Positions 31,756 through 45,362 of a DNA stretch of 64,000 nucleotides are shown here, in pieces. A program made the position numbers and the translations under genes. The notes beneath the pieces were generated by a model that saw only the letters and a program-made list of their open reading frames with translations, made no database searches and had not been told where the DNA came from. How positions within the stretch are numbered: position 1 is the stretch's first letter; each line of letters opens with the position of its first letter. The stretch is from Minisyncoccota bacterium (lineage in GTDB: Bacteria > Patescibacteriota > Minisyncoccia > Phycocordibacterales > JABMNX01): the NCBI GenBank assembly GCA_965222715.1, contig OZ244961.1, positions 365,458 through 429,457 of the forward strand, in the 5' to 3' direction.

Positions 31756-33120
31756 TTACCCTTTCTTTTCTTTCACAAACTCAACTGCCCGGAGAAGTGC
31801 CATCTTTGCACTCGTGTGTTGGGTAAGATAATTTTGATCAACACCACTTGAAAGAATATGTACTAGTCGCTCTATGTCTTTACTTCCCCAATTCTCGAAA
31901 TAGTCTTCAATTGACTCGTCTTTCAGTGTTTCCTCTTCCCCAAGTCGTCGTGCATGTAATCTATCAAGTTCGCACAATGCTGAGACTAATACTTCTGATA
32001 TATTGCGACCTTTTTCTTTAAATGAACGAACTACACGCAAAACCCCTTCTATATCTCCACGAACAATTGTTCGAATAAGTTCTGTTGTATGTGAAGCAGA
32101 TGGTGATACCTCGTATGTAGGTTCCTGAACTTTTTCCTGAGGTATAGTGTTTTGTGTTTCTGTGCTCGTATTAGATATAGGACGTGACACCTTTCCAGCA
32201 CGATGTAACTCAAGTACTGGCATTTTCCCGTCAGCACCTACTTTTAATTCGAGTGAATCATGCATAGCAGCAGTTGAGTGTGTGAAAGGAGAAGAAGGAG
32301 TGTACTCTACATCCTTTGAAGTTACCGTTTCTGCAACATCATCATGTCGTCCTTCATGTTCGTATATAGGTGCCTGGGTGTTCGCCGTAAATAGGTAAGC
32401 AAACACGTTATACATACGCGCACCAAATCGTCGAGTTACCAAAAAGTATGCAAGAACTCCACTCCAAAGGATAAGCATGAACCAGTAAAGAGTAGCGAGA
32501 AATGTTCCTGCTTTAAAACCAGTATACGGTACTTGGCTGAGTGTAATAAACGAGAGTGGTTGCGCGTCAGCACCAGGGAGTGCACTTACACTTACTGTTG
32601 GAGAATTTAATCCTCCTGGTCCCCCCGTACCTCCTGGACCACCAGTTGGAGTTGGGTCAGGTGTTGGGTCAGGATCAGGTGTGGGATCAGGGGTCGGATC
32701 CGGGTCTGGAGTGGGGTCAGGTGTTGGGTCGGGAGTAGGACTTGGTGTTGGACTAGGTGTTGGGCTTGGACTAGGAGATGAGCCACCACCGTCACTACCA
32801 CCATCACTAGAAGAACCGTTGTCATTTCCAGCACCAGTTCCACCACCAAAACCACCTCCACTACTTCCACCAGATGAACCGTTGTCATTTCCAGCACCAG
32901 TTCCACCACCAAAACCACCTCCATCACCGCCTCCACCTCCATCACCGCCTCCACCTCCGTCACCTCCAGCACCATCACCGCCACCGAAGGCATAGATTAC
33001 GTGACTGATATTGCTGGTAGGAACGGTTATAAGAGAAAAAAGCACAATACACACAATAAGGAAAATTGCTTTTTGGGGTGTAGATATATGCTTGTAATGT
33101 TTCTTTTTTAAGTTACTCAT
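31756..33120 (-). CDS. Membrane-anchored surface protein with Gly/Ser-rich and Pro-Thr/Pro-Asp repeat linker, second TM segment and ~260-aa C-terminal domain
   Basis: N-terminal signal-anchor. GGGDGAGGDGGGGG..., 21-aa tandem repeat GGGFGGGTGAGNDNGSS..., SPSPTPSPTPDPTPDP tract. Start set at MSNLKKK. Confidence 0.6.
   Translation of the reverse strand: MSNLKKKHYKHISTPQKAIFLIVCIVLFSLITVPTSNISHVIYAFGGGDGAGGDGGGGGDGGGGGDGGGFGGGTGAGNDNGSSGGSSGGGFGGGTGAGNDNGSSSDGGSDGGGSSPSPSPTPSPTPSPTPDPTPDPTPDPDPTPDPTPDPDPTPDPTPTGGPGGTGGPGGLNSPTVSVSALPGADAQPLSFITLSQVPYTGFKAGTFLATLYWFMLILWSGVLAYFLVTRRFGARMYNVFAYLFTANTQAPIYEHEGRHDDVAETVTSKDVEYTPSSPFTHSTAAMHDSLELKVGADGKMPVLELHRAGKVSRPISNTSTETQNTIPQEKVQEPTYEVSPSASHTTELIRTIVRGDIEGVLRVVRSFKEKGRNISEVLVSALCELDRLHARRLGEEETLKDESIEDYFENWGSKDIERLVHILSSGVDQNYLTQHTSAKMALLRAVEFVKEKKG
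32600..32960. repeat. Low-complexity tandem repeats inside surface-protein gene (12-18-bp PT/PD-encoding periodicity; 63-bp unit x2; 18-bp unit x2)
   Basis: gaaccgttgtcatttccagcaccagttccaccaccaaaaccacctcca at 32813 and 32876; atcaccgcctccacctcc x2. Confidence 0.7.
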
Positions 33121-33198
33121 AACTACTTCAAATATAAAAAGGAGGGTGGGCGGTGTAAGCCACACCACCACTCCAAAAGTTCTTCGCGATACTCGACG

Positions 33199-34416
33199 TT
33201 ACAGACAGTCGAGGATGGCGTTCAAGTTCGCACCCTCGCTACTGCTACTCCGAGCCAAGATAGCGAGCTCACTCGGACTGTTACCCCCTGAGCCAAGTCG
33301 AGTACTCAGAAGACGAACACCACTGCTGTCCACTCGTGGATACATAACCTGACAACCGTTACCTGAGGCGTCCTTCATGAGAAACTGAGAGTCTTGTTGA
33401 CTTGCTGCTTCTCGAGAGACCGTCCGCTCCCAGTATACCAGATTCGGATGCTCCGAATGGTCTCCAGGTGACGCAGAAGCTGCCTCCCACCCACTCGAAC
33501 TCGGATAGTTCACCTGGAACTGAACCGAGGTAGAGACGGTGGTTGCACTTCCCCTCCCGTCGTCATAAGCAGCCATCAGTTCGCCATCCAGGTCACGCGA
33601 GACCGCCCCGTCCTCAAACGGATACGTCTCATTCCCTTCTTGCGAGTTGACTTCACGAATCCGAGCTTGGAGTGCCGCAGGAATTGAATCCCATTCCCAG
33701 AAACGAATTCTGAGAACATACGGATCATCCACTGCGGTGCTCGCGGTCTGGACCGGAGCTGCCGTCTGCGCCACCGGTTGAGCCGGGGGTTCTGCCGCCG
33801 TCGAAGTGCTTTGCGACCCCTCGACGTAAAACGCCCAGTTGTCACAGATATGCGGTCGAACGAGCACCCACGTTTGACCTTGGTGCTCGACGCGATACAC
33901 GTCGGCCGTCCGGTCATACGTCTGCGCCCAATCGCCCATCACGACATTCGTCCAGAGACGATGGGTGTTCAGTTGAGAACTCCACATCATCCCAGAGAAT
34001 TTCGTTCCCGGAACGAGCTGTTCGACAGAGGGGTTACTCCCCTTGATTAGTTCACGCCATTTGTCGTGAACTGCGGAAGGTACATTGCAACGATCCTTGA
34101 GAATGTGAAGCGCGTAGGCCACACTCCCTTGGTAGGGATGCGCACCAGGGCGCACCCAGTTGTTGTTCCTCGTTGAAGTGCAGGTGTCGACAGCGGACGT
34201 CGTCCGTTGCGGCACACCACCTACGGTTTCCGCTTGGGTTTCCACCTGGGCCGGCGCGCTGCTGGCGATCTGCGGGGGCGATTGGGTTGCCTCGGGTTCG
34301 ACATGACATTCGCCGATACCGACACAGCCGTTCATGTCCCCGTCACCGAGGTTTATGGCGCATGCTCCCAAAACAATCGGGAGAAACACCCACACAAGGC
34401 GAAGACGTTTGATCAT
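33199..34416 (-). CDS. Putative secreted lipoprotein of foreign origin (GC ~57%, GC3-rich codons), function unknown
   Basis: Signal peptide MIKRLRLVWVFLPIVLGAC (lipobox-like LGAC). 405-aa ORF. All other frames show only short ORFs typical of high-GC sequence. Confidence 0.55.
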   Translation of the reverse strand: MIKRLRLVWVFLPIVLGACAINLGDGDMNGCVGIGECHVEPEATQSPPQIASSAPAQVETQAETVGGVPQRTTSAVDTCTSTRNNNWVRPGAHPYQGSVAYALHILKDRCNVPSAVHDKWRELIKGSNPSVEQLVPGTKFSGMMWSSQLNTHRLWTNVVMGDWAQTYDRTADVYRVEHQGQTWVLVRPHICDNWAFYVEGSQSTSTAAEPPAQPVAQTAAPVQTASTAVDDPYVLRIRFWEWDSIPAALQARIREVNSQEGNETYPFEDGAVSRDLDGELMAAYDDGRGSATTVSTSVQFQVNYPSSSGWEAASASPGDHSEHPNLVYWERTVSREAASQQDSQFLMKDASGNGCQVMYPRVDSSGVRLLSTRLGSGGNSPSELAILARSSSSEGANLNAILDCL

Positions 34417-34542: not shown

Positions 34543-35196
34543 TTATGAGTTATTTTGGATTGTAAGCGCATAGCTTCCTACGTATACTGCCTCTACCACA
34601 TATCGCTCACTCTCAGCACCAAATGAGTTACAGGTTGAGAGCGTAAGTTTTCGCTTCCCTTCTTCAAAATTAACACGAACTACATCTGCTTCAGCAAGTT
34701 CAAGACTCTCTACTCGATACACATATCGAGTGGTATATGAATCTACAAAGACCTCATCTCCAACCTCAACGTTTTTTAAACCATTAAACGCTTGGTAATT
34801 TTTATTTATCACGTTTGGCAAAAAACTTGAGTGCCCGAAAATAAAAATATTTGTCTCTTCGTTAAGCAGTCCCGTTCCTGGGTACTGTACTACCCCATCT
34901 TGAAGTGCCTGATCAAGAACAGTGATATCACGACTCTCTGGGTGCTCAATGTTTATATCAATCGAAACTGATGGGATGCGTATATGTACTGCTTGTTCGT
35001 ACATTGTGTTCTCTTTTGAGTCTGATTGGGGGTAATTACTCGCAAGAGCAGCTGTTGTGTTATTTCCTGTATACTCTGGTACAAAATCAACAAGTGAAAG
35101 TACCAAGTATGAACAAAAGAAAATACAAAGAAACCATACCAGAAATCGCCATCGATTCTCGATAAGAAATAGTATGCTTTCTTTTATATCTTCCAT
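34543..35196 (-). CDS. Sortase-family transpeptidase
   Basis: N-terminal TM anchor. Catalytic His (IFIFGHSSF) and TLxTC motif (KLTLSTCNS), conserved Arg downstream. Confidence 0.8.
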   Translation of the reverse strand: MEDIKESILFLIENRWRFLVWFLCIFFCSYLVLSLVDFVPEYTGNNTTAALASNYPQSDSKENTMYEQAVHIRIPSVSIDINIEHPESRDITVLDQALQDGVVQYPGTGLLNEETNIFIFGHSSFLPNVINKNYQAFNGLKNVEVGDEVFVDSYTTRYVYRVESLELAEADVVRVNFEEGKRKLTLSTCNSFGAESERYVVEAVYVGSYALTIQNNS

Positions 35197-35368: not shown

Positions 35369-36148
35369 ATGATACAGCGTTTTAAAGAAAATTTTAATAC
35401 AGAAGCAGGCGCACGAACAAAAGACATGTTTGTTCGCAGTCTCGCTGTTATTGGCTTTTTTGCCATTCTCTTTGTAGGACTATGGGGTACGGTGCAAGTA
35501 GTAAAAGTTGCACCTCAGGCATTTTCAACTCTTGCTGCGGTAACCACATCCCTTACTCAAACCTTCTTCTCTGCTGATACCGAAGAAGGGCAAGAAGGGA
35601 ATGCTGAAGAGGCTTCTTCTTCAAATCAAACTGAAGAAAGTACTACTCCAAATGAAAACGTGAGTGGAAATGAGGAAAATACTCAAGGAACAGCACAAGC
35701 ACTTACTCCTGGAGAGCGAGTTGATAACGTATTCCCTATTAACGATAGTCGAGCGCCATCAAACCCAAATGGTGAACCAGATCTTGTGGCTCGTATTCTT
35801 TCCGTTGGTGAAATAAATAGTGCTGGTGTATTTGTTCCAAAAGATAGTATTACTGTTGGCAACAAAGGAGCCGTGATGTTTGAAGTACAAAACAACGGAA
35901 CAAAAACATCTGATACCTGGGTATTTAATGCAGTGCTACCAACCTTCCCTATGCACATTTTCCACTCACAAACCCAACAAGCACTAAACCCCGGTGAGAA
36001 AATTCAATATACCCTTGGTTTTGACCAAATTGATTACAATAAAAAAGAAGGTGTAGTTACTATTAATGTAGACCCCGCTGGAAGTATGAAAGAGTCAAAT
36101 GAAAATAACAACATTGCTCAGCGGGTGTTAAAAATCATTTCAAATTAA
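35369..36148 (+). CDS. Membrane-anchored protein with C-terminal CARDB-like (cell-adhesion-related) beta-sandwich domain
   Basis: N-terminal TM; acidic linker. C-terminal domain with PDLVARILSVGE...VGNKGAVMFEVQNNGT...NPGE...NENNN pattern typical of CARDB. Confidence 0.6.
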   Translation: MIQRFKENFNTEAGARTKDMFVRSLAVIGFFAILFVGLWGTVQVVKVAPQAFSTLAAVTTSLTQTFFSADTEEGQEGNAEEASSSNQTEESTTPNENVSGNEENTQGTAQALTPGERVDNVFPINDSRAPSNPNGEPDLVARILSVGEINSAGVFVPKDSITVGNKGAVMFEVQNNGTKTSDTWVFNAVLPTFPMHIFHSQTQQALNPGEKIQYTLGFDQIDYNKKEGVVTINVDPAGSMKESNENNNIAQRVLKIISN

Positions 36149-38825: not shown

Positions 38826-41228
38826 TTATCGCACCTCGTAACCCTCAGTATTGTTAAGTGCTGTGGTCACTCGCTCCATAGCTTCATGTATTTCCTCATC
38901 TGAGAGTGTTTTTTCAGGCGACTGGAAGACAAGACGAAAGGCATAGGACACTCTACCGTCCTTTTTAAACTCATCAAATAATGTATGTTGCACTAGTAGG
39001 TCTCCAGCAGTATTAGTAATTGTTGTAAGTACGTCATTCCCACTCACACTCTCTGGTACCCATACTGCAATATCTCGAAGGGCAAATGGATAGATTGAAA
39101 ATGGTGTATACGTGTAGGTACTCTTATCAATTGTCGCACTATAGTCGTGTGGTTCAGGTAGTGATTCCACTACTGCATCGAAATTGCACTCATACACTCC
39201 GTTAGTCACTTTTCCGTCAGGCATCCCAAACTCTTCTTTGAGATCAGCAACAATACTTTCTAGAACTTCCTGCTTTGAAGTTGTTATACCAAGTGACATA
39301 TGTTCACTGGTATTGGTAAAGACTGTTCCTAATTCAAACAAGGAAATTGTGTTAGCACTAAACAATGGTATATTTTTTACATTTAGTTCAAGAGACTGTG
39401 TGAGTCCAGTAACAAGAGAGGGTCTAAGATATTTTTTGTCACTTGCGATTGGGTTCTCAATTTCTACTTCCCCACTATCTTGAAGTGCATAGGTATACAC
39501 TTCAGTAAAGCCACGATTGGTTAAAAATTCTCGCACCTTTTCAGCGTAGTAGAATCGCTTATTCACTGACACTTTTTTCTCACTTGTAGGTGACTGCTCT
39601 GCGACTATATTTCCATAACCATAAATGCGTCCAATTTCTTCAATAAGATCCTCTTTATTACCACTTGTGAGAAAACTAGTGTGAGCGACCAAATCAAGTC
39701 GTTCAAATGGAATAGAAACCACATACCGATCCTCTGCATCCATCATTCTTCGGTATCCGACAATATTTTTAAAGTACGCACTCTCTTCAATCTTCTCTTC
39801 GATAACCCCCTCTTTTGTTGCAGCGTGGAGCACCCGATCGTCACCGAGGTATATACCACAGTGAGATACTCCACCTTCTACCACCGTGCCCGAGAGAAAC
39901 TCTTGTGTCTTTTCCTGTGCGCCAGTGTGTACCACCTCTTCACCATCACTCAGCCGAGTGAACGAGTGTTCTTTTTTTGTTCCAACACCATTTGTTGAAA
40001 ATATAACGTCACCAGGCTTACGTTCTGATTCAATGATCGGAGTACCGTAAATATATTGATCAATAGCAATACGTGGAAGTGAGATGCCAGCTTGCGCAAA
40101 TACATACGCAACAAAGGACGAACAATCAAACGCATGTGGTGCATTATACGAGATGCTAGCACCATACTTATACGGGGTACTAACGTACGTTTGTGCAACT
40201 TCAATGACCTTAGATGCTGGCACTACTTTTTCAAATGGGAATGTGAGTCGTGCAAAGATATCTTCAATGGCTGATTCAGATATAGTAGTCCCAAGAAGAC
40301 TGTTCACCTCATTACATGAGACTCCTGACTTATATTCAATAGTTTTTTGAAGTGGAAACTCATCTACGATTCCTTCAACTGTACCACCAGCTATCTCAAG
40401 TATTAATGTAACCACCTCGGCTAATCCGTACCGAGCATATTCAGGCGCTATGCCGTTTTCAAATCGAGTTGAGGCGTCGGTACGAAGTTTTAATTCTTGA
40501 GACGTTTTGCGTATACTTGAACCTTTAAAGTTAGCAGCTGAGATAACAACAGAGGTGGTGTCTTTTGTAAGCTCAGCTTGTGTTCCACCTTTTATCCCAG
40601 CAATATCGAGAACAGCACCACTATGACTATCTGCAAGCACCATCATTCCTTCTCTAAGCGAATACTCCTCACCACCAAGTAAACTGATCTTTTCTTCTTC
40701 TTTTGCTGATCGAATAATGATACCTACACTCCCCTCTTTTTCAGTTAATTTATCGGCATCAAAGGCGTGCGTTGGTTGGCCGAGTCCCAACATAACGTAA
40801 TTTGTTGCGTCAACAATGTTGTTAATTGAACGTTGTCCAAGTGTAGTAAGACGTTCTTGTAGCCACTGGGGAGAGTCTTTTACAACAACACCTGTGATGA
40901 GCGCTGCGGTATGTCTTGGTGCGTTAATATGATCATTAATCGAGAGAGTGAGTTTCTTTGAATGAGGAAACTCTTTATATGATTCTCGTAACACATCTTT
41001 TTTTAATGGAAGCTTAAAAAGTACTGAGCACTCTTTTGCAATTCCTCTATGTGAAAGACAGTCATGAGCACGGTTTGGTAATACATCAATGTCTAAAACT
41101 GAGTCGTCACCAACAGTCTCAACGCCTTCAACCTCAAATGAATGAAAGGTGAGCTTTTCTGCAACTTCCTCGGGTGAAGGTAGTGGTGTATCAAAATATG
41201 TTTGTAGCCAGTTGTAACTTACTTTCAT
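38826..41228 (-). CDS. pheT: Phenylalanine--tRNA ligase beta subunit lacking the B2 OB domain and carrying an inserted NlpC/P60-type Cys-His domain between B5 and the catalytic-like domain
   Basis: B1 (MKVSYNWLQTYF), B3/B4 (ATNYVMLGLGQPTHAFDADKL), B5, then PYKYGAS...FDCSSFVAYVF...HCGIYLGDDRVLHA (NlpC/P60 hallmarks), then IPFERLDLVAHTS...EEIGRIYGYGNI and C-terminal FDX-ACB domain. Confidence 0.93.
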   Translation of the reverse strand: MKVSYNWLQTYFDTPLPSPEEVAEKLTFHSFEVEGVETVGDDSVLDIDVLPNRAHDCLSHRGIAKECSVLFKLPLKKDVLRESYKEFPHSKKLTLSINDHINAPRHTAALITGVVVKDSPQWLQERLTTLGQRSINNIVDATNYVMLGLGQPTHAFDADKLTEKEGSVGIIIRSAKEEEKISLLGGEEYSLREGMMVLADSHSGAVLDIAGIKGGTQAELTKDTTSVVISAANFKGSSIRKTSQELKLRTDASTRFENGIAPEYARYGLAEVVTLILEIAGGTVEGIVDEFPLQKTIEYKSGVSCNEVNSLLGTTISESAIEDIFARLTFPFEKVVPASKVIEVAQTYVSTPYKYGASISYNAPHAFDCSSFVAYVFAQAGISLPRIAIDQYIYGTPIIESERKPGDVIFSTNGVGTKKEHSFTRLSDGEEVVHTGAQEKTQEFLSGTVVEGGVSHCGIYLGDDRVLHAATKEGVIEEKIEESAYFKNIVGYRRMMDAEDRYVVSIPFERLDLVAHTSFLTSGNKEDLIEEIGRIYGYGNIVAEQSPTSEKKVSVNKRFYYAEKVREFLTNRGFTEVYTYALQDSGEVEIENPIASDKKYLRPSLVTGLTQSLELNVKNIPLFSANTISLFELGTVFTNTSEHMSLGITTSKQEVLESIVADLKEEFGMPDGKVTNGVYECNFDAVVESLPEPHDYSATIDKSTYTYTPFSIYPFALRDIAVWVPESVSGNDVLTTITNTAGDLLVQHTLFDEFKKDGRVSYAFRLVFQSPEKTLSDEEIHEAMERVTTALNNTEGYEVR

Positions 41229-42886: not shown

Positions 42887-44479
42887 CTACACTGTCTGAC
42901 TCGAAGCTTTTTTAGGGGTCACCCAGAACCCCATATATTTACCAAACAACAGTCGTGTTTGTGCATCAAGCCCTGGAATAGCACTAAAGACGATCATGGT
43001 AAGTGGCACAAGTATCCACTGCAATATCATACTAACATAGCGCGTTTTTTTGTACTGTTGAGGACGTGGCGGCAAAAGTGTTGTCGATATAATTGCTGAG
43101 ACAATTAAACCAAACATGGCAAGCGTGAGGAACGTTCGAGCAACGATGGGTAAATTATATGAAAGTATAGTGGTACTGAATTCTCGCCCGCCAACTAACA
43201 ACGGTAGCCACCCAAGCGAAAAAAGGATAAGTGGGTGTGTAGCAAGAGACCAAAACCCTTCAATTTGTATCCAACAGAAGTGAAGTCGTTTGCGAAGCGG
43301 AAATGTTTTATTTTTTATTGAGTGGTAGAGAATGTATGGAACATTTTCTACACCATAGGTCCATCGACGGTTTTGTTTATATATATTTTTAAACGTCTCC
43401 CAACTTGAATCTGCAACATTTGCATCCATAGAAACAGGATACGAGATTGGAATGACTCGATATGCGCCATTATGGGCAAACAGTAAGTTCCAAAAAATGC
43501 GTGAATCTTCACTCACCATATTTTTTTGCCAATAACCAACTCGATGCAGTGCTTTAAACGATACTGCGTGAGAAGAAAATGTTGCAAGTTTCTCAGGCCG
43601 TTCTTGTTGAATCATCTGCCAGAATGTACCAGATGTTGCGGCAACACGAGAAAACGAGGGCGCATCCCAAATATTATTATTATACAGTGGAACAGGTTGG
43701 AATGACGCGGTGTGTGGATCTTCTGTTGTTAAAAAATACCACGTAAGGCACTGAAAATATTGTGGGTACACCACCGTATCTACATCTAAAGCAGAAACGA
43801 TAACATCTTCATACGGAATATTATGCGTATCAAGAATTGCTACTCGTGCCTCCTCAGCAGCATACGCAATATTTGAACCTTTTCCCGGCATCTCTCCAGG
43901 GATGTCTTTAGGATGTACTGCGATGTGTATATGCCCAAAAGTATCTTGGTGTTCACTTAAGATGCGCTTCGCAATAGCTACAGCCTCCTCCCCCGCCCTT
44001 TCTTCTGGAGCTAGTACGATACACAATTTTTTTAAATCACCGGTTGTTTCAGCAAGTTTTTGTACTGTATATGAGACTGTCTCGTAACTTTCTTTGTAGT
44101 ACGGCAACAATACTAAGTGCCTGATGTGATCATGTTTCAGATGCGATACTCGCTCCCCCCAATCAGTGTTAATACTATGTCGCAATCGACGCCAATTATG
44201 CCGAACATGTACTGAAAGGTAGATTGTTTTGAGTAGCCAAAAAAGTGAGAACGCAATAATTATGTACGCGGCTATTTCAGGAGCAAAAAAAGAAAGGAGG
44301 ACAACACCGAGAAGGGTTGTCCATGAAAGTACTCCTGGAAACATTTCAAAAAAACGGTACAGTAATCGGTCTTTACCCTCTAGGTCAGTTGCTCTACCAA
44401 CATGAAAATCTTTTGGGAGATAGAGTGTTTCTTTGTTTTTTTTAGACATAAAAATAGAATCAGAGTAGTGGAGCGTCAC
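42887..44479 (-). CDS. Family 2 glycosyltransferase, membrane-integrated (cellulose-synthase-like, QxxRW motif)
   Basis: Multiple TM helices at both ends; cytoplasmic GT-A domain with D..D region and YKQNRRWTYG (QxxRW). Confidence 0.6.
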   Translation of the reverse strand: MTLHYSDSIFMSKKNKETLYLPKDFHVGRATDLEGKDRLLYRFFEMFPGVLSWTTLLGVVLLSFFAPEIAAYIIIAFSLFWLLKTIYLSVHVRHNWRRLRHSINTDWGERVSHLKHDHIRHLVLLPYYKESYETVSYTVQKLAETTGDLKKLCIVLAPEERAGEEAVAIAKRILSEHQDTFGHIHIAVHPKDIPGEMPGKGSNIAYAAEEARVAILDTHNIPYEDVIVSALDVDTVVYPQYFQCLTWYFLTTEDPHTASFQPVPLYNNNIWDAPSFSRVAATSGTFWQMIQQERPEKLATFSSHAVSFKALHRVGYWQKNMVSEDSRIFWNLLFAHNGAYRVIPISYPVSMDANVADSSWETFKNIYKQNRRWTYGVENVPYILYHSIKNKTFPLRKRLHFCWIQIEGFWSLATHPLILFSLGWLPLLVGGREFSTTILSYNLPIVARTFLTLAMFGLIVSAIISTTLLPPRPQQYKKTRYVSMILQWILVPLTMIVFSAIPGLDAQTRLLFGKYMGFWVTPKKASSQTV

Positions 44480-44612
44480 GACTTACTAATTATTTTAGTC
44501 CAAGTATTCCTAAAGTAATAATTAGTCGCGACCCCGCCTCGCTCGTTCGTCGACCGCTCCTCACATCGCTCCGACTTGGCTCAAGGCACGCGTTTGACGC
44601 AGGTCAAACACT

Positions 44613-44636
44613 AAAAGTTCCTTATTGGGAACTTTT
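44613..44636 (-). terminator. Hairpin plus U-run downstream of tRNA cluster (minus strand); T4 also on plus strand
   Basis: aaaagttcc-ttatt-gggaactttt. Confidence 0.4.
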
Positions 44637-44640
44637 ACCT

Positions 44641-44725
44641 TGAGCCACCTGTCAGACTCGAACTGACGACCTACTCATTACAAGTGGTTCGAAGTTAGGC
44701 ACTTCTCACCTCCACCAACTGAGCC
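44641..44725 (-). pseudogene. tRNA-Thr-derived fragment: D-arm-like segment + 30-nt insert + exact copy of 3' half of tRNA-Thr, CCA end corrupted
   Basis: 45-bp direct repeat of 44728-44772 at 44642-44686. Ends GGCTCAAGG instead of GGCTCCA. Confidence 0.5.
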
Positions 44726-44801
44726 TGGAGCCACCTGTCAGACTCGAACTGACGACCTACTCATTACAAGTGAGTTGCTCTACCAACTGAGCTAAGGTGG
44801 C
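44726..44801 (-). tRNA. tRNA-Thr (anticodon UGU), CCA encoded
   Basis: GCCACCTTAGCTCAGTTGGTAGAGCAACTCACTTGTAATGAGTAGGTCGTCAGTTCGAGTCTGACAGGTGGCTCCA. 7-bp acceptor stem pairs perfectly. D, anticodon (loop CTTGTAA) and T arms (TTCGAGT loop) fold canonically. Confidence 0.85.
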
Positions 44802-44839
44802 GTATATACTTTTTTTCTTTAACACAACCTAAGCTATTC

Positions 44840-44914
44840 CAGCGAGACAACTCACTTGTAACAAGTGGTTCGAAGCTATTCGCTTCTCACCTCTACCAAC
44901 TGAGCTAAGGTGGC
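44840..44914 (-). pseudogene. tRNA-Thr-derived fragment: leader + 5' acceptor + D-arm identical to tRNA-Thr, followed by rearranged non-tRNA sequence
   Basis: ATATACGCCACCTTAGCTCAGTTGGTAGAG shared with intact tRNA. Then GTGAGAAGCGAATAGCTTCGAACCACTTGTTACAAGTGAG. Shares GTGAGAAGYG...CTTCGAACCACTTGT with the other fragment. Confidence 0.5.
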
Positions 44915-44969
44915 GTATATTTCTGCTTTAACCTTCTACCACCTTGATAGGTGATCTATTGAAGTGTGC

Positions 44970-45362
44970 CTATTGTACAGTATCCTGAGAAGGTTTTTCA
45001 ACACTGTACTTGTGATTGCGAACCTCCTTAAGGAAAGATGAATTTGTGTGACCCCGCTTAATGCTCTTTTTTCTACGAGCGCCTTCAAGTACATGCATCA
45101 TCTTCCTTTCAACAAATCGAGCAGCGACCAGTATAAAGAATGCTACCTTCTTTACCAAGATATGATACCACTCAATGAATGTCGCATACTCAAAAGTAGG
45201 TATACGTCGGGTAATCATTTGCCAGAACGTAACCACATAGATGTCGAGTCTTTCTCGTACATGAGGAATAACACGTTCGCCTCGAGCTAGTTCCCAGTAA
45301 CGAAAACCTAAAAATAAGACGGTGCCTCCAAGTGAAGCAAGAAAAATGCTAATACTAAGCAT
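44970..45362 (-). CDS. Hypothetical small membrane protein (130 aa)
   Basis: Two TM helices, basic C-terminus. Downstream of tsf in same orientation. Confidence 0.45.
   Translation of the reverse strand: MLSISIFLASLGGTVLFLGFRYWELARGERVIPHVRERLDIYVVTFWQMITRRIPTFEYATFIEWYHILVKKVAFFILVAARFVERKMMHVLEGARRKKSIKRGHTNSSFLKEVRNHKYSVEKPSQDTVQ

Follow-up and report, generated by a model that had tools for sequence, protein, structure and literature searches.

The whole stretch of DNA analyzed here, referred to as the window, comprises 64 kb (64,000 nucleotides, nt) of contig OZ244961.1 from a Minisyncoccota bacterium. It contains exactly one tRNA gene, the tRNA-Thr(UGU) that a preliminary description of the sequence had proposed and on which ARAGORN and Rfam (RF00005, 73.1 bits) agree. 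The gene belongs to a co-oriented string (gyrB, pheT, pheS, orf285, a family-2 glycosyltransferase, the tRNA, orf130, tsf, rpsB and a release factor) and is flanked by two units, A upstream and B downstream, which join partial copies of the tRNA to a related insert. It is well supported that one functional tRNA-Thr(UGU) gene is enclosed here by two structured elements, both derived from the tRNA without being tRNAs themselves. Likewise well supported is that A belongs to a recurring "U element" located upstream of the orthologous tRNA-Thr in Kaiserbacteria-like Patescibacteria. The upstream element is probably a new tRNA-derived element, either regulatory or selfish, and not the integration scar of a virus, since it recurs in at least ten related lineages.

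Two tRNA-derived units around an intact tRNA gene

Read along the minus strand, unit A starts with ATATAC and GCCACCTTAGCTCAGTTGGTAGAG (tRNA nt 1-24), followed by GTGAGAAGCGAATAGCTTCGAACCACTTGT and then by TACAAGTGAGTTG...AGCTTAGGTTGTG..., and reaches a second ATATAC that leads into the intact tRNA. After the tRNA, GGCTCAGTTGGTGGAG is followed by GTGAGAAGTGCCTAACTTCGAACCACTTGT, which is directly joined to AATGAGT...GGTGGCTCAAGG (Table 1). The 30-mer made of ATATAC and tRNA nt 1-24 is present twice in the window (44891-44920 in A, 44778-44807 at the tRNA), and so is the 45-nt string of tRNA nt 30-74 (44642-44686 in B, 44728-44772 in the tRNA), with 41 nt between the latter repeats. The two 30-nt inserts (44861-44890 in A, 44680-44709 in B) have the same sense and are identical at 26 of 30 positions; their consensus finds only these two matches in the window even when 3 mismatches are allowed, with 0 expected from 100 shuffles. 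All these duplications had been noticed in the preliminary description, together with the D-arm-like piece that precedes the 3′-half copy and the altered end of B, which reads TCAAGG where the tRNA has TCCA, and all of them hold. Two other parts of A had been overlooked: the segment TTACAAGTGAGTTG after its insert, an exact reverse complement of part of the tRNA, and, further 3′, a degenerate stretch antisense to the acceptor and D parts (...AGCTTAGGTTGTG).

Table 1. Features of the tRNA-Thr locus, in minus-strand order (window coordinates)
Feature	Position	Strand	Basis or remark
Promoter-like site TTGAAA-18-TACAAT, end of orf130	44972-45001	-	Consensus scan, 10/12; pattern match only; ~50 nt upstream of unit A
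Unit A, part a: leader ATATAC + exact tRNA nt 1-24 (acceptor 5′ strand, D-arm)	44891-44920	-	Identical 30-mer at the tRNA
Hairpin H of A: GGTGAGAAGC-GAATA-GCTTCGAACC	44867-44891	-	10-bp stem with tandem G.A / A.G
Palindrome CACTTGT-T-ACAAGTG	44853-44867	-	Sense tRNA nt 30-36, then directly its reverse complement
Anti-tRNA arm TTACAAGTGAGTTG, exact reverse complement of tRNA nt 25-38	44848-44861	-	14-nt exact antisense match
Tail of A: degenerate antisense of tRNA nt ~1-23, then A-rich spacer	44808-44847	-	AGCTTAGGTTGTG complementary to the acceptor 5′ strand
Intact tRNA-Thr(UGU), encoded CCA	44726-44801	-	ARAGORN, Rfam RF00005; own ATATAC leader 44802-44807
Unit B, D-arm-like segment GGCTCAGTTGGTGGAG	44710-44725	-	14/16 match to tRNA nt 9-24; directly after the tRNA CCA
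Hairpin H of B: GGTGAGAAGT-GCCTA-ACTTCGAACC	44686-44710	-	4 positions differ from H of A
Unit B, exact copy of tRNA nt 30-74 (45 nt)	44642-44686	-	Anticodon loop, anticodon-stem 3′ strand, variable loop, T-arm, acceptor 3′ strand
Helix P1, 5′ strand TGGCTCAAGGTA	44636-44647	-	3′ end of B including the non-CCA CAAGG; pairs with 44577-44588 in the minimum free energy (MFE) fold
Terminator-like hairpin AAAAGTTCC-CAATAA-GGAACTTTT	44613-44636	-	Within P1; no call by a simple terminator scan
Hairpin Tb GTTTGAC-CTGC-GTCAAAC	44592-44609	-	Within P1
Helix P1, 3′ strand TGCCTTGAGCCA	44577-44588	-	Antisense to the 3′ end of B
GC-rich trailer core (AAGTCGGAGCG...GGGGTCGCGAC) + long A/T-rich hairpin	44475-44577	-	Ends ~25 nt before the glycosyltransferase ATG (44449)

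Unit B lacks the acceptor 5′ strand. Its hairpin H differs from that of A by one compensatory pair change (C-G to T-A), which accounts for two of the four differences, and by two loop positions. The 45-nt copy in B shows zero differences with the tRNA, against 4 of 23 in the neighbouring insert as compared with that of A (P ~2e-4 at the insert rate), which argues that this segment is under homogenisation or selection. In the MFE fold of the 326-nt region, the 3′ part of A with its anti-tRNA arm pairs with the 5′ half of the tRNA (z = -8), because A carries both the antisense of nt 25-38 and the degenerate copy of the D and acceptor regions.

Neither of the units is recognized as a tRNA. A search with ARAGORN in default mode, with the intron option (-i) or at a lowered threshold (-ps80), as the preliminary description had advised, calls only the gene at 44726-44801, and at -ps70 there are only spurious calls elsewhere in the window; the Rfam tRNA model matches the intact gene alone, even at E <= 10. 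No Rfam 15 family besides tRNA reaches its gathering score in the window. Between 44400 and 45100, sub-threshold matches (E <= 10) correspond to plastid-UTR (untranslated region), microRNA, CRISPR-repeat and Francisella small RNA (sRNA) models, all of which score far under their gathering cut-offs and can be ascribed to the repeated tRNA parts, and no ribozyme, riboswitch, T-box or group I intron model gives a match at that cut-off. Twelve related loci compared with Rfam (E <= 1) returned, besides tRNA, nothing but sub-threshold matches of equally low plausibility.

Split and permuted tRNA genes occur in Nanoarchaeum, Caldivirga and red algae, and the present locus resembles them in its separate segments with 5′ and 3′ parts of a tRNA, each joined to extra sequence. 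The preliminary description had offered this as an alternative, according to which A and B would be the halves of a second tRNA-Thr, either split, permuted or interrupted by an intron; A has the 5′ acceptor strand and the D-arm, B has the T-arm and the 3′ acceptor, and both acceptor strands are complementary. However, the 5′ strand of the anticodon stem (nt 25-29) is absent from A and B, where H replaces it, and the halves are incomplete as a tRNA. The extra sequences are alike and of the same sense, not complementary, and the C-G to T-A change keeps each hairpin but would give a C.A mismatch in an A:B duplex. Moreover, an intact gene lies between A and B, the end of B is CAAGG, nine lineages have U without any B, ARAGORN with intron options and Rfam find nothing, and the host is a bacterium without the context of an archaeal splicing endonuclease. 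A split or permuted tRNA is thus the least probable of all the explanations considered, and can be set aside almost completely.

Some other structural readings of A were tried and rejected. A tRNA-like cloverleaf would be suggested by the AGGTTGT in its tail, which stands opposite the 5′ strand of the acceptor, but A lacks both a T-arm and a conserved tail. Hairpin H does not fit a mimic of an anticodon arm, a T-arm or a K-turn either, in view of its loop sizes and sequences, and its tandem G.A is restricted to the type shared by the window and the related locus L140 (L numbers designate the loci compared). An inversion switch between the antisense arm and the tRNA would yield a broken tRNA as the inverted product.

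The U element in related lineages and the origin of unit B

Elements of the U type were found upstream of the orthologous tRNA in at least ten Kaiserbacteria-like lineages, always directly upstream of their tRNA and never elsewhere. They are composed, in this order, of a short leader with tRNA nt 1-24, a hairpin H of 10-13 bp replacing nt 25-29, tRNA nt 30-36, 0-2 nt, the reverse complement of nt ~36-24, a poorly conserved tail of 40-60 nt and, finally, the tRNA. The window shares its junctions (24 / H / 30-36 / antisense, starting at 35-38 and running to 21-25) with L140, L021, L033, L066, L125, L005, L009 and L011; identical copies exist in L006-L008 (as in L005) and in L116 (as in L009), and part a of unit A is also present in the U elements of nine other lineages. 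The number of units varies, with 1.5 tandem units in L021 and 2 units in L033. Looser relatives occur in L064, L071, L099, L117 and L092, and in the first four of them copies of the tRNA 5′ side, which end at nt 11-26, are followed by GC-rich hairpins. From the tail of A, GAGGTTGT is retained in L140 and GCTTAGGTTAT in L117; the remainder of the tail aligns poorly with L140 as compared with the core.

The association of antisense copies with this tRNA was also examined in an unbiased sample of 120 metagenome loci having the first 28 nt of this tRNA-Thr, which provide 111 distinct upstream and 109 distinct downstream flanks. Exact antisense matches of at least 11 nt were detected within 200 nt of the tRNA-Thr in 7 of the 111 upstream and 6 of the 109 downstream flanks, as compared with 0 of 555 and 1 of 545 shuffled flanks, respectively, and with 0 of 57 and 1 of 56 for other tRNAs in these loci. 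In L004, L012, L015 and L138, which have no U, GC-rich trailers of ~190 nt carry the reverse complement of their own T-arm and acceptor 3′ strand, and usually finish with a second sense copy of the tRNA 3′ end, and in L034, L035 and L044 antisense copies of 12-15 nt lie just past the tRNA or its terminator.

Downstream of the tRNA, helix P1 encloses the terminator-like hairpin and hairpin Tb. The homologous P1 strands of L021 are GGCTCCAGG / CCTGGAGCC; CAAGG at the end of B is matched by CCTTG in the trailer, and their L021 counterparts are CCAGG / CCTGG. Hairpin Tb reads GTCTGAC-CTGC-GTCAGAC in L021, with one compensatory pair change, and a homologous terminator-like hairpin stands directly after the tRNA in L021, L033, L035 and L044. 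The window trailer at 44475-44577 is homologous to the trailer core of L021 and, through it, to L012, L015 and L004 (BLAST), and has no Rfam match. Unit B occupies the place where the L021 tRNA itself abuts the trailer (GG-TAAAA... terminator hairpin), and now supplies the 5′ strand of the conserved helix P1, a role taken over from the tRNA.

No unit similar to B was found at the other loci compared. Its sequence looks like an in-register chimera, in which the D-arm of U, H and nt 30-36 are continued by tRNA nt 37-74, with the junction within the shared CACTTGT. The most economical origin would be a crossover or gene conversion at CACTTGT between a second U copy and a tRNA copy, followed by the loss of the first 9 nt; the collapse of a second U-tRNA unit offers a simple route to B, since tandem U units exist in L021 and L033. 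The register of the chimera and these tandem units support the suggestion, made in the preliminary description, of recombination among tandem tRNA-derived copies.

The other suggestion of that description fared otherwise. Integrase-mediated insertion leaves partial-tRNA direct repeats (attL/attR), which bracket integrated elements such as tycheposons and genomic islands (bioRxiv 10.1101/2020.12.28.424599), and on this reading B would be the 3′ half duplicated by a tyrosine-integrase element. It is indeed a direct repeat of the tRNA 3′ half which starts in the anticodon loop and lies beside the intact gene. However, these repeats bracket no foreign DNA: there is 1 nt between the tRNA and B, and the 41-nt spacer of the repeats is U-derived except for the tRNA end. 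Neither integrase nor cargo is present at the locus, and no recombinase domain was detected in the flanking open reading frames (ORFs) scanned. The order tsf-orf130-tRNA-Thr-glycosyltransferase-orf285-pheS-pheT is kept in ten fetched relatives, none of which shows an island at the orthologous locus, and rpsB-tsf-orf130-tRNA-glycosyltransferase-orf285-pheS-pheT is identical in relatives with and without these elements. Therefore, no island is or was inserted here, and the lack of both an island and a nearby recombinase removes the reading as an att scar. In addition, excision would remove a repeat instead of leaving it adjacent, a unit such as A, with a 5′ copy and an inverted copy, could not be produced by an integrase crossover, and only one viral contig carries the 28-mer of the tRNA. 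Unlike att scars, the units of the window contain a hairpin that is conserved and covaries, and many lineages have them at the orthologous site; conservation of the arrangement across relatives had been named beforehand as an argument against a scar, and for A it is found. In any case, an origin of B by integration is very improbable.

Several other features were recorded at the compared loci. Further conserved GC-rich trailer modules, none of them in Rfam, lie downstream of tRNA-Thr in L004, L012, L015, L138 and L019: one, the "D core", consists of AAGCGGAGCC-hairpin-GGCGAGCTCGGG, another of ACAAGGGCACTTCTTGTTTAC...GTAAACAAAGTCG, and some occur in tandem (two units in L015). An unannotated module of three hairpins, "M", appears in the trailers of L021 and L034, inside the first U unit (U1) of L033 and, in L092, after a downstream U-like unit. 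Its hairpin 1 is GTGAGAAG..CTTYG, hairpin 2 is long, and hairpin 3 (YYCCU-GUA-AGGRR) is clearly covarying; M has no Rfam match, and a 60-nt direct repeat flanks its L021 copy. The H stem of the window resembles hairpin 1 of M (GTGAGAAG-hairpin-CTTYG...), which makes this module a possible source of H. The whole U-tRNA-trailer cassette of L021 is inverted relative to the glycosyltransferase gene, as compared with the window and the other relatives, and L017 and L112 contain arrays of four to five tRNA-Thr-like units, with a period of 72-74 nt, upstream of the tRNA that matches the 28-mer. The tRNA-Thr of the viral contig L137 (IMGVR_UViG_3300020473_002181) begins with the same 28 nt and has the anticodon stem ACGGT and the T-arm ATCAG; no U-like copy was detected beside it. 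Contigs that end inside the tRNA (L003, L008, L014 and L016) were discarded as evidence of repeats, since a tRNA common to several strains, at which assemblies break off, accounts better for them.

Constraint on the element and its possible function

At the sequence level, the U element looks constrained. Between lineages the sequence of hairpin H changes almost completely, with its place and pairing kept (GGTGAGAAGC/GCTTCGAACC; GGTGAAAGAGTAT/ATACTTTTTCACC; GGTAAATAGTCC/GGACTGTTTACC; TTCAAACAATAC/GTATTGTTTGAA; and others). In a structure-guided alignment, padded with N since MAFFT misaligned the hairpin, double-sided changes affect 10 of 12 stem pairs, and 94.8% of the cells are paired, against 34-47% with slid partners; the observed value is reached in 0 of 500 shuffles. 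Independently of this alignment, the U cores of A and L140 are identical at 66 of 67 positions, including all 23 of the non-tRNA positions of H (stem and retained loop; the L140 hairpin differs by a 6-nt loop insertion), which is above neutral conservation: where residues are conserved in the adjacent tsf and orf130, both genomes agree at only 45-46% of the third codon positions. The tail aligns far worse than the core in this comparison, which argues against a recent transfer of the whole unit. Compensatory changes in a helix and conservation above the neutral level, by which structured RNAs are generally recognized, are therefore both present.

The arms of U also follow the resident tRNA. 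Elements with CACTTGT and ACAAGTGAGTTGC accompany tRNAs with the anticodon stem ACTCA, and those with GTTTTGT and ACAAAACCGTTGC accompany tRNAs with ACGGT; in the lineages with the ACGGT stem both arms of the palindrome switch jointly to GTTTTGT/ACAAAAC. This correspondence extends to the complement of nt 29, a position left without a partner within U, and the antisense arm exceeds the sense copy by 5-9 nt, over positions unpaired within U.

Compensatory changes would be equally predicted by an element acting at the level of DNA, in which the hairpin and the palindrome were extruded as single-stranded DNA, for example as a site related to recombination, transposition or replication. A perfect 7+7 palindrome, a stable hairpin and the frequent local rearrangements (duplications; the inversion of the L021 cassette) would suit such a site. 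However, on the tRNA-sense strand G.T predominates among the cells that are not Watson-Crick pairs (5 against 2 A.C), A, B and L140 all retain the tandem G.A, and there is no recombinase or HUH-type gene in the neighbourhood. The motif is not a dispersed repeat either: a scan of genome contigs for GTGAGAAG-N7-CTTCGAACCAC, a pattern that would miss the longer loop of L140, gave only two chance matches within ORFs. A DNA-level role appears quite improbable.

Our best guess for the function of U is that of a cis-acting RNA with an anti-tRNA arm able to mask the tRNA in read-through transcripts. According to this model, the elements would act in cis as RNA, and transcripts started upstream would carry U, as suggested by the promoter-like site at 44972-45001 and the co-oriented operon. 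The antisense arm would first pair locally with a decoy, the 7-nt sense copy, and its unpaired extension of 5-9 nt would then invade the nascent tRNA along 13-16 nt, from the 3′ strand of the D-stem to the anticodon (nt 22-37). Read-through of the terminator would add the antisense of the trailer, which would pair with the 3′ end of the acceptor. Both masks would either keep RNase P and RNase Z away from the tRNA or single it out for duplex-specific cleavage, and transcripts beginning and ending beside the tRNA would mature normally. The masks would decide whether the tRNA in the rpsB-tsf...pheST string is folded and excised from read-through transcripts or stays inert, and hairpin H would constitute a structural or protein-binding core. 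That a conserved family of tRNA-derived elements exists, with B as a recombinant, is very likely; masking, taken by itself, is proposed tentatively and may well prove wrong, and the joint account of family, recombinant and mechanism stands slightly below an even chance.

Alternatively, U could be an independent trans-acting sRNA, in which a mimic of the tRNA-Thr 5′ half would be combined with an arm against the anticodon, targeting the mature or nascent tRNA-Thr or titrating threonyl-tRNA synthetase, a modification enzyme or an anticodon nuclease. The element does have the leader and the first 24 nt of the tRNA, as well as an additional promoter-like site upstream of A (44972-45001); its core (part a, H, and the sense and antisense arms) is conserved and its tail is not, and the antisense arm spans the anticodon and contains the cognate ACA codon. 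However, a terminator scan found none between U and the tRNA, so that both are most simply co-transcribed, U only ever occurs directly upstream of its tRNA, and a folded mature tRNA would be a poor target for a 13-nt antisense. For these reasons, action in trans is considered improbable.

The main rival of cis masking is a selfish origin, since one relative, L064, has a GIY-YIG gene in the same position. In this case, the elements would be the footprints of a selfish insertion, such as a homing-type GIY-YIG cassette, or of repeated break repair in the tRNA-Thr gene: the 5′ part of the tRNA would have been duplicated, fold-back repair at the anticodon loop would have made the palindrome, and U, B and the trailer modules would be leftovers devoid of ORFs, tRNA-like through gene conversion and with no function for the host. 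The GIY-YIG ORF of L064 (80 aa, Pfam E = 2e-13; ~300 nt upstream of tRNA-Thr) lies between a copy of tRNA nt 1-26 and the intact tRNA, exactly where the non-tRNA part of U would be. That copy has a GC-rich hairpin inserted in its D-loop, and the stop codon of the ORF falls inside the tRNA. Similar small ORFs (~80 aa) are found within 430 nt of tRNA-Thr in L118 and L099, and altogether the 0.9 Mb of fetched loci contain four GIY-YIG ORFs, three of which are that close to it. The breakpoints of the 5′ copies differ by lineage (nt 11, 14, 15, 21/26 and 24), and the patchy distribution, the tandem U units, the tRNA arrays of L017 and L112, the inverted L021 cassette and the presence of M inside U1 of L033 are also in line with such footprints.

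Against footprints, all 23 positions of H are identical between the window and L140 despite near-saturated synonymous sites and a diverged adjoining tail, and elsewhere H keeps its position and pairing through many double changes. Arms of 7 and 13-16 nt are short for RecA-type gene conversion, yet they track the tRNA, and streamlined, deletion-prone genomes would not be expected to retain ~110 nt of junk in many lineages. A profile search of all ORFs of at least 50 aa detected no GIY-YIG ORF in the 64-kb window, where a homing cassette should show a nuclease ORF at the duplicated fragment. Homing-endonuclease cassettes that are free-standing or fracture genes are the subject of two reviews (PMC2988022, PMC2677866). 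The locus resembles such cassettes in the L064 gene, placed between a 5′ fragment of tRNA-Thr and the intact gene at the non-tRNA position of U, and in its proneness to rearrangement, consistent with recurrent breaks. It departs from these cassettes in that U and B of the window contain no ORF, no nuclease gene exists in the window and the U core is conserved far beyond the neutral expectation. The U locus may be related in origin to homing-endonuclease cassettes, and an explanation by footprints without host function is unlikely, though it keeps an appreciable weight.

Several points weigh against a conserved, functional element that masks its tRNA. The transcription of U, its read-through into the tRNA and any pairing between them are all deduced from sequence, and the nuclease ORF of L064 points to a selfish origin. 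The alignment of H was made by hand around the proposed helix, from nine related sequences with uncontrolled kinship, and therefore the significance of its covariation is overstated. The strand signal is weak (G.U pairs in 5 cells, A.C mismatches in 2), and identity between arms and tRNA may stem from gene conversion, while the apparent compensation in the hairpin could result from quasi-palindrome template switching without any selection. The spread of U is patchy, with equally distant lineages (L003, L004, L012, L015 and L138) lacking it, the U copies of L066 and L125 have degenerate tRNA-derived parts, as expected of decaying copies, and B is known from one genome only.

With respect to known RNA systems, T-box leaders act in cis by pairing a codon with the anticodon of a tRNA and a bulge with its NCCA end. 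The elements described here are similar in logic only: leader and trailer are complementary in cis to the anticodon region (including the ACA codon) and, in the trailer, to the acceptor 3′ end, and their architecture permits alternative pairings. Unlike in T-boxes, the partner would be the tRNA of the same transcript and not a tRNA regulating an mRNA in trans, the complementarity extends over 13-16 nt instead of 3-4 nt, and the window has no T-box sequence, Stem I features or Rfam match. A second comparison concerns the leaders and trailers of rRNA and tRNA operons, which form complementary processing stems, and the small RNAs derived from external transcribed spacers. In both situations flanking transcribed spacers form long helices that enclose or abut a mature RNA, and structured RNAs derived from spacers occur. 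However, the spacers of the window would pair with the body of the tRNA (nt 22-38; 3′ acceptor/T-arm strand) and not with each other, and this pairing is predicted to block the mature fold instead of presenting it.

No conserved cis-antisense leader derived from a tRNA is described in the literature searched, nor is there an Rfam model for it. More speculatively still, U and the trailer could represent a new class of cis-encoded "anti-tRNA" RNA switches, in which antisense arms and a built-in decoy would compete for the co-transcribed tRNA. Such switches would gate, in a streamlined bacterium of the Candidate Phyla Radiation, between excision of the tRNA and a masking that keeps the polycistronic mRNA intact. 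Masking in cis, if true, would amount to a regulation of tRNA maturation or to a protection of operon mRNAs from tRNA-processing nucleases, and to our knowledge no such control has been described. Should a nuclease cassette instead have left the elements as its footprints, they would point to a selfish element that establishes itself in tRNA-Thr genes through duplication of the 5′ part. Partial tRNA copies beside tRNA genes are routinely taken as integration scars, and here the same signature marks a conserved, covarying element, absent from Rfam and hosted by an uncultivated phylum whose RNA biology is little charted; annotation pipelines should not label units A and B as pseudo-tRNAs or att sites.

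Genomic context and other features of the window

The window is cellular, not viral. The neighbours of the tRNA are housekeeping genes and the sole phage match consists of 55 nt within the tRNA; a phage origin of the locus was rejected on these grounds. Relatives of its EF-Ts are found in Patescibacteria metagenome-assembled genomes labelled Kaiserbacteria or Paceibacteria, and the nearest other relative is 78% identical in this protein. A search for related loci with orf130 gave no match in metagenomes.

For the glycosyltransferase ORF next to the trailer, the ATG at 44449 is a more plausible start than the GTG at 44479 given by the ORF finder. Inside this ORF, 44386-44400 (minus strand) is a 15-nt exact match to tRNA nt 15-29 (TTGGTAGAGCAACTG). 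It was rejected as a tRNA-derived piece and is most likely a coincidence, because the encoded V-G-R-A-T is partly conserved in the glycosyltransferases of relatives (VGRAP in L021, VARAT in L125).

Further along the string, pheT (38826-41228, minus strand) encodes a phenylalanyl-tRNA synthetase beta chain whose B3/4 and B5 domains are separated by an NlpC/P60 peptidase domain, an insertion likewise recorded in L004, L005 and L006. Finally, positions 32500-34400 are GC-rich (0.54-0.60, against a background of ~0.41) and cover two long ORFs with either no Pfam family or only a low-complexity, PARP-like repeat match. This stretch adjoins a sortase gene (34543-35196) and the gene of a CARDB-domain protein (35369-36148), and its two ORFs probably encode sortase-anchored repetitive surface proteins.

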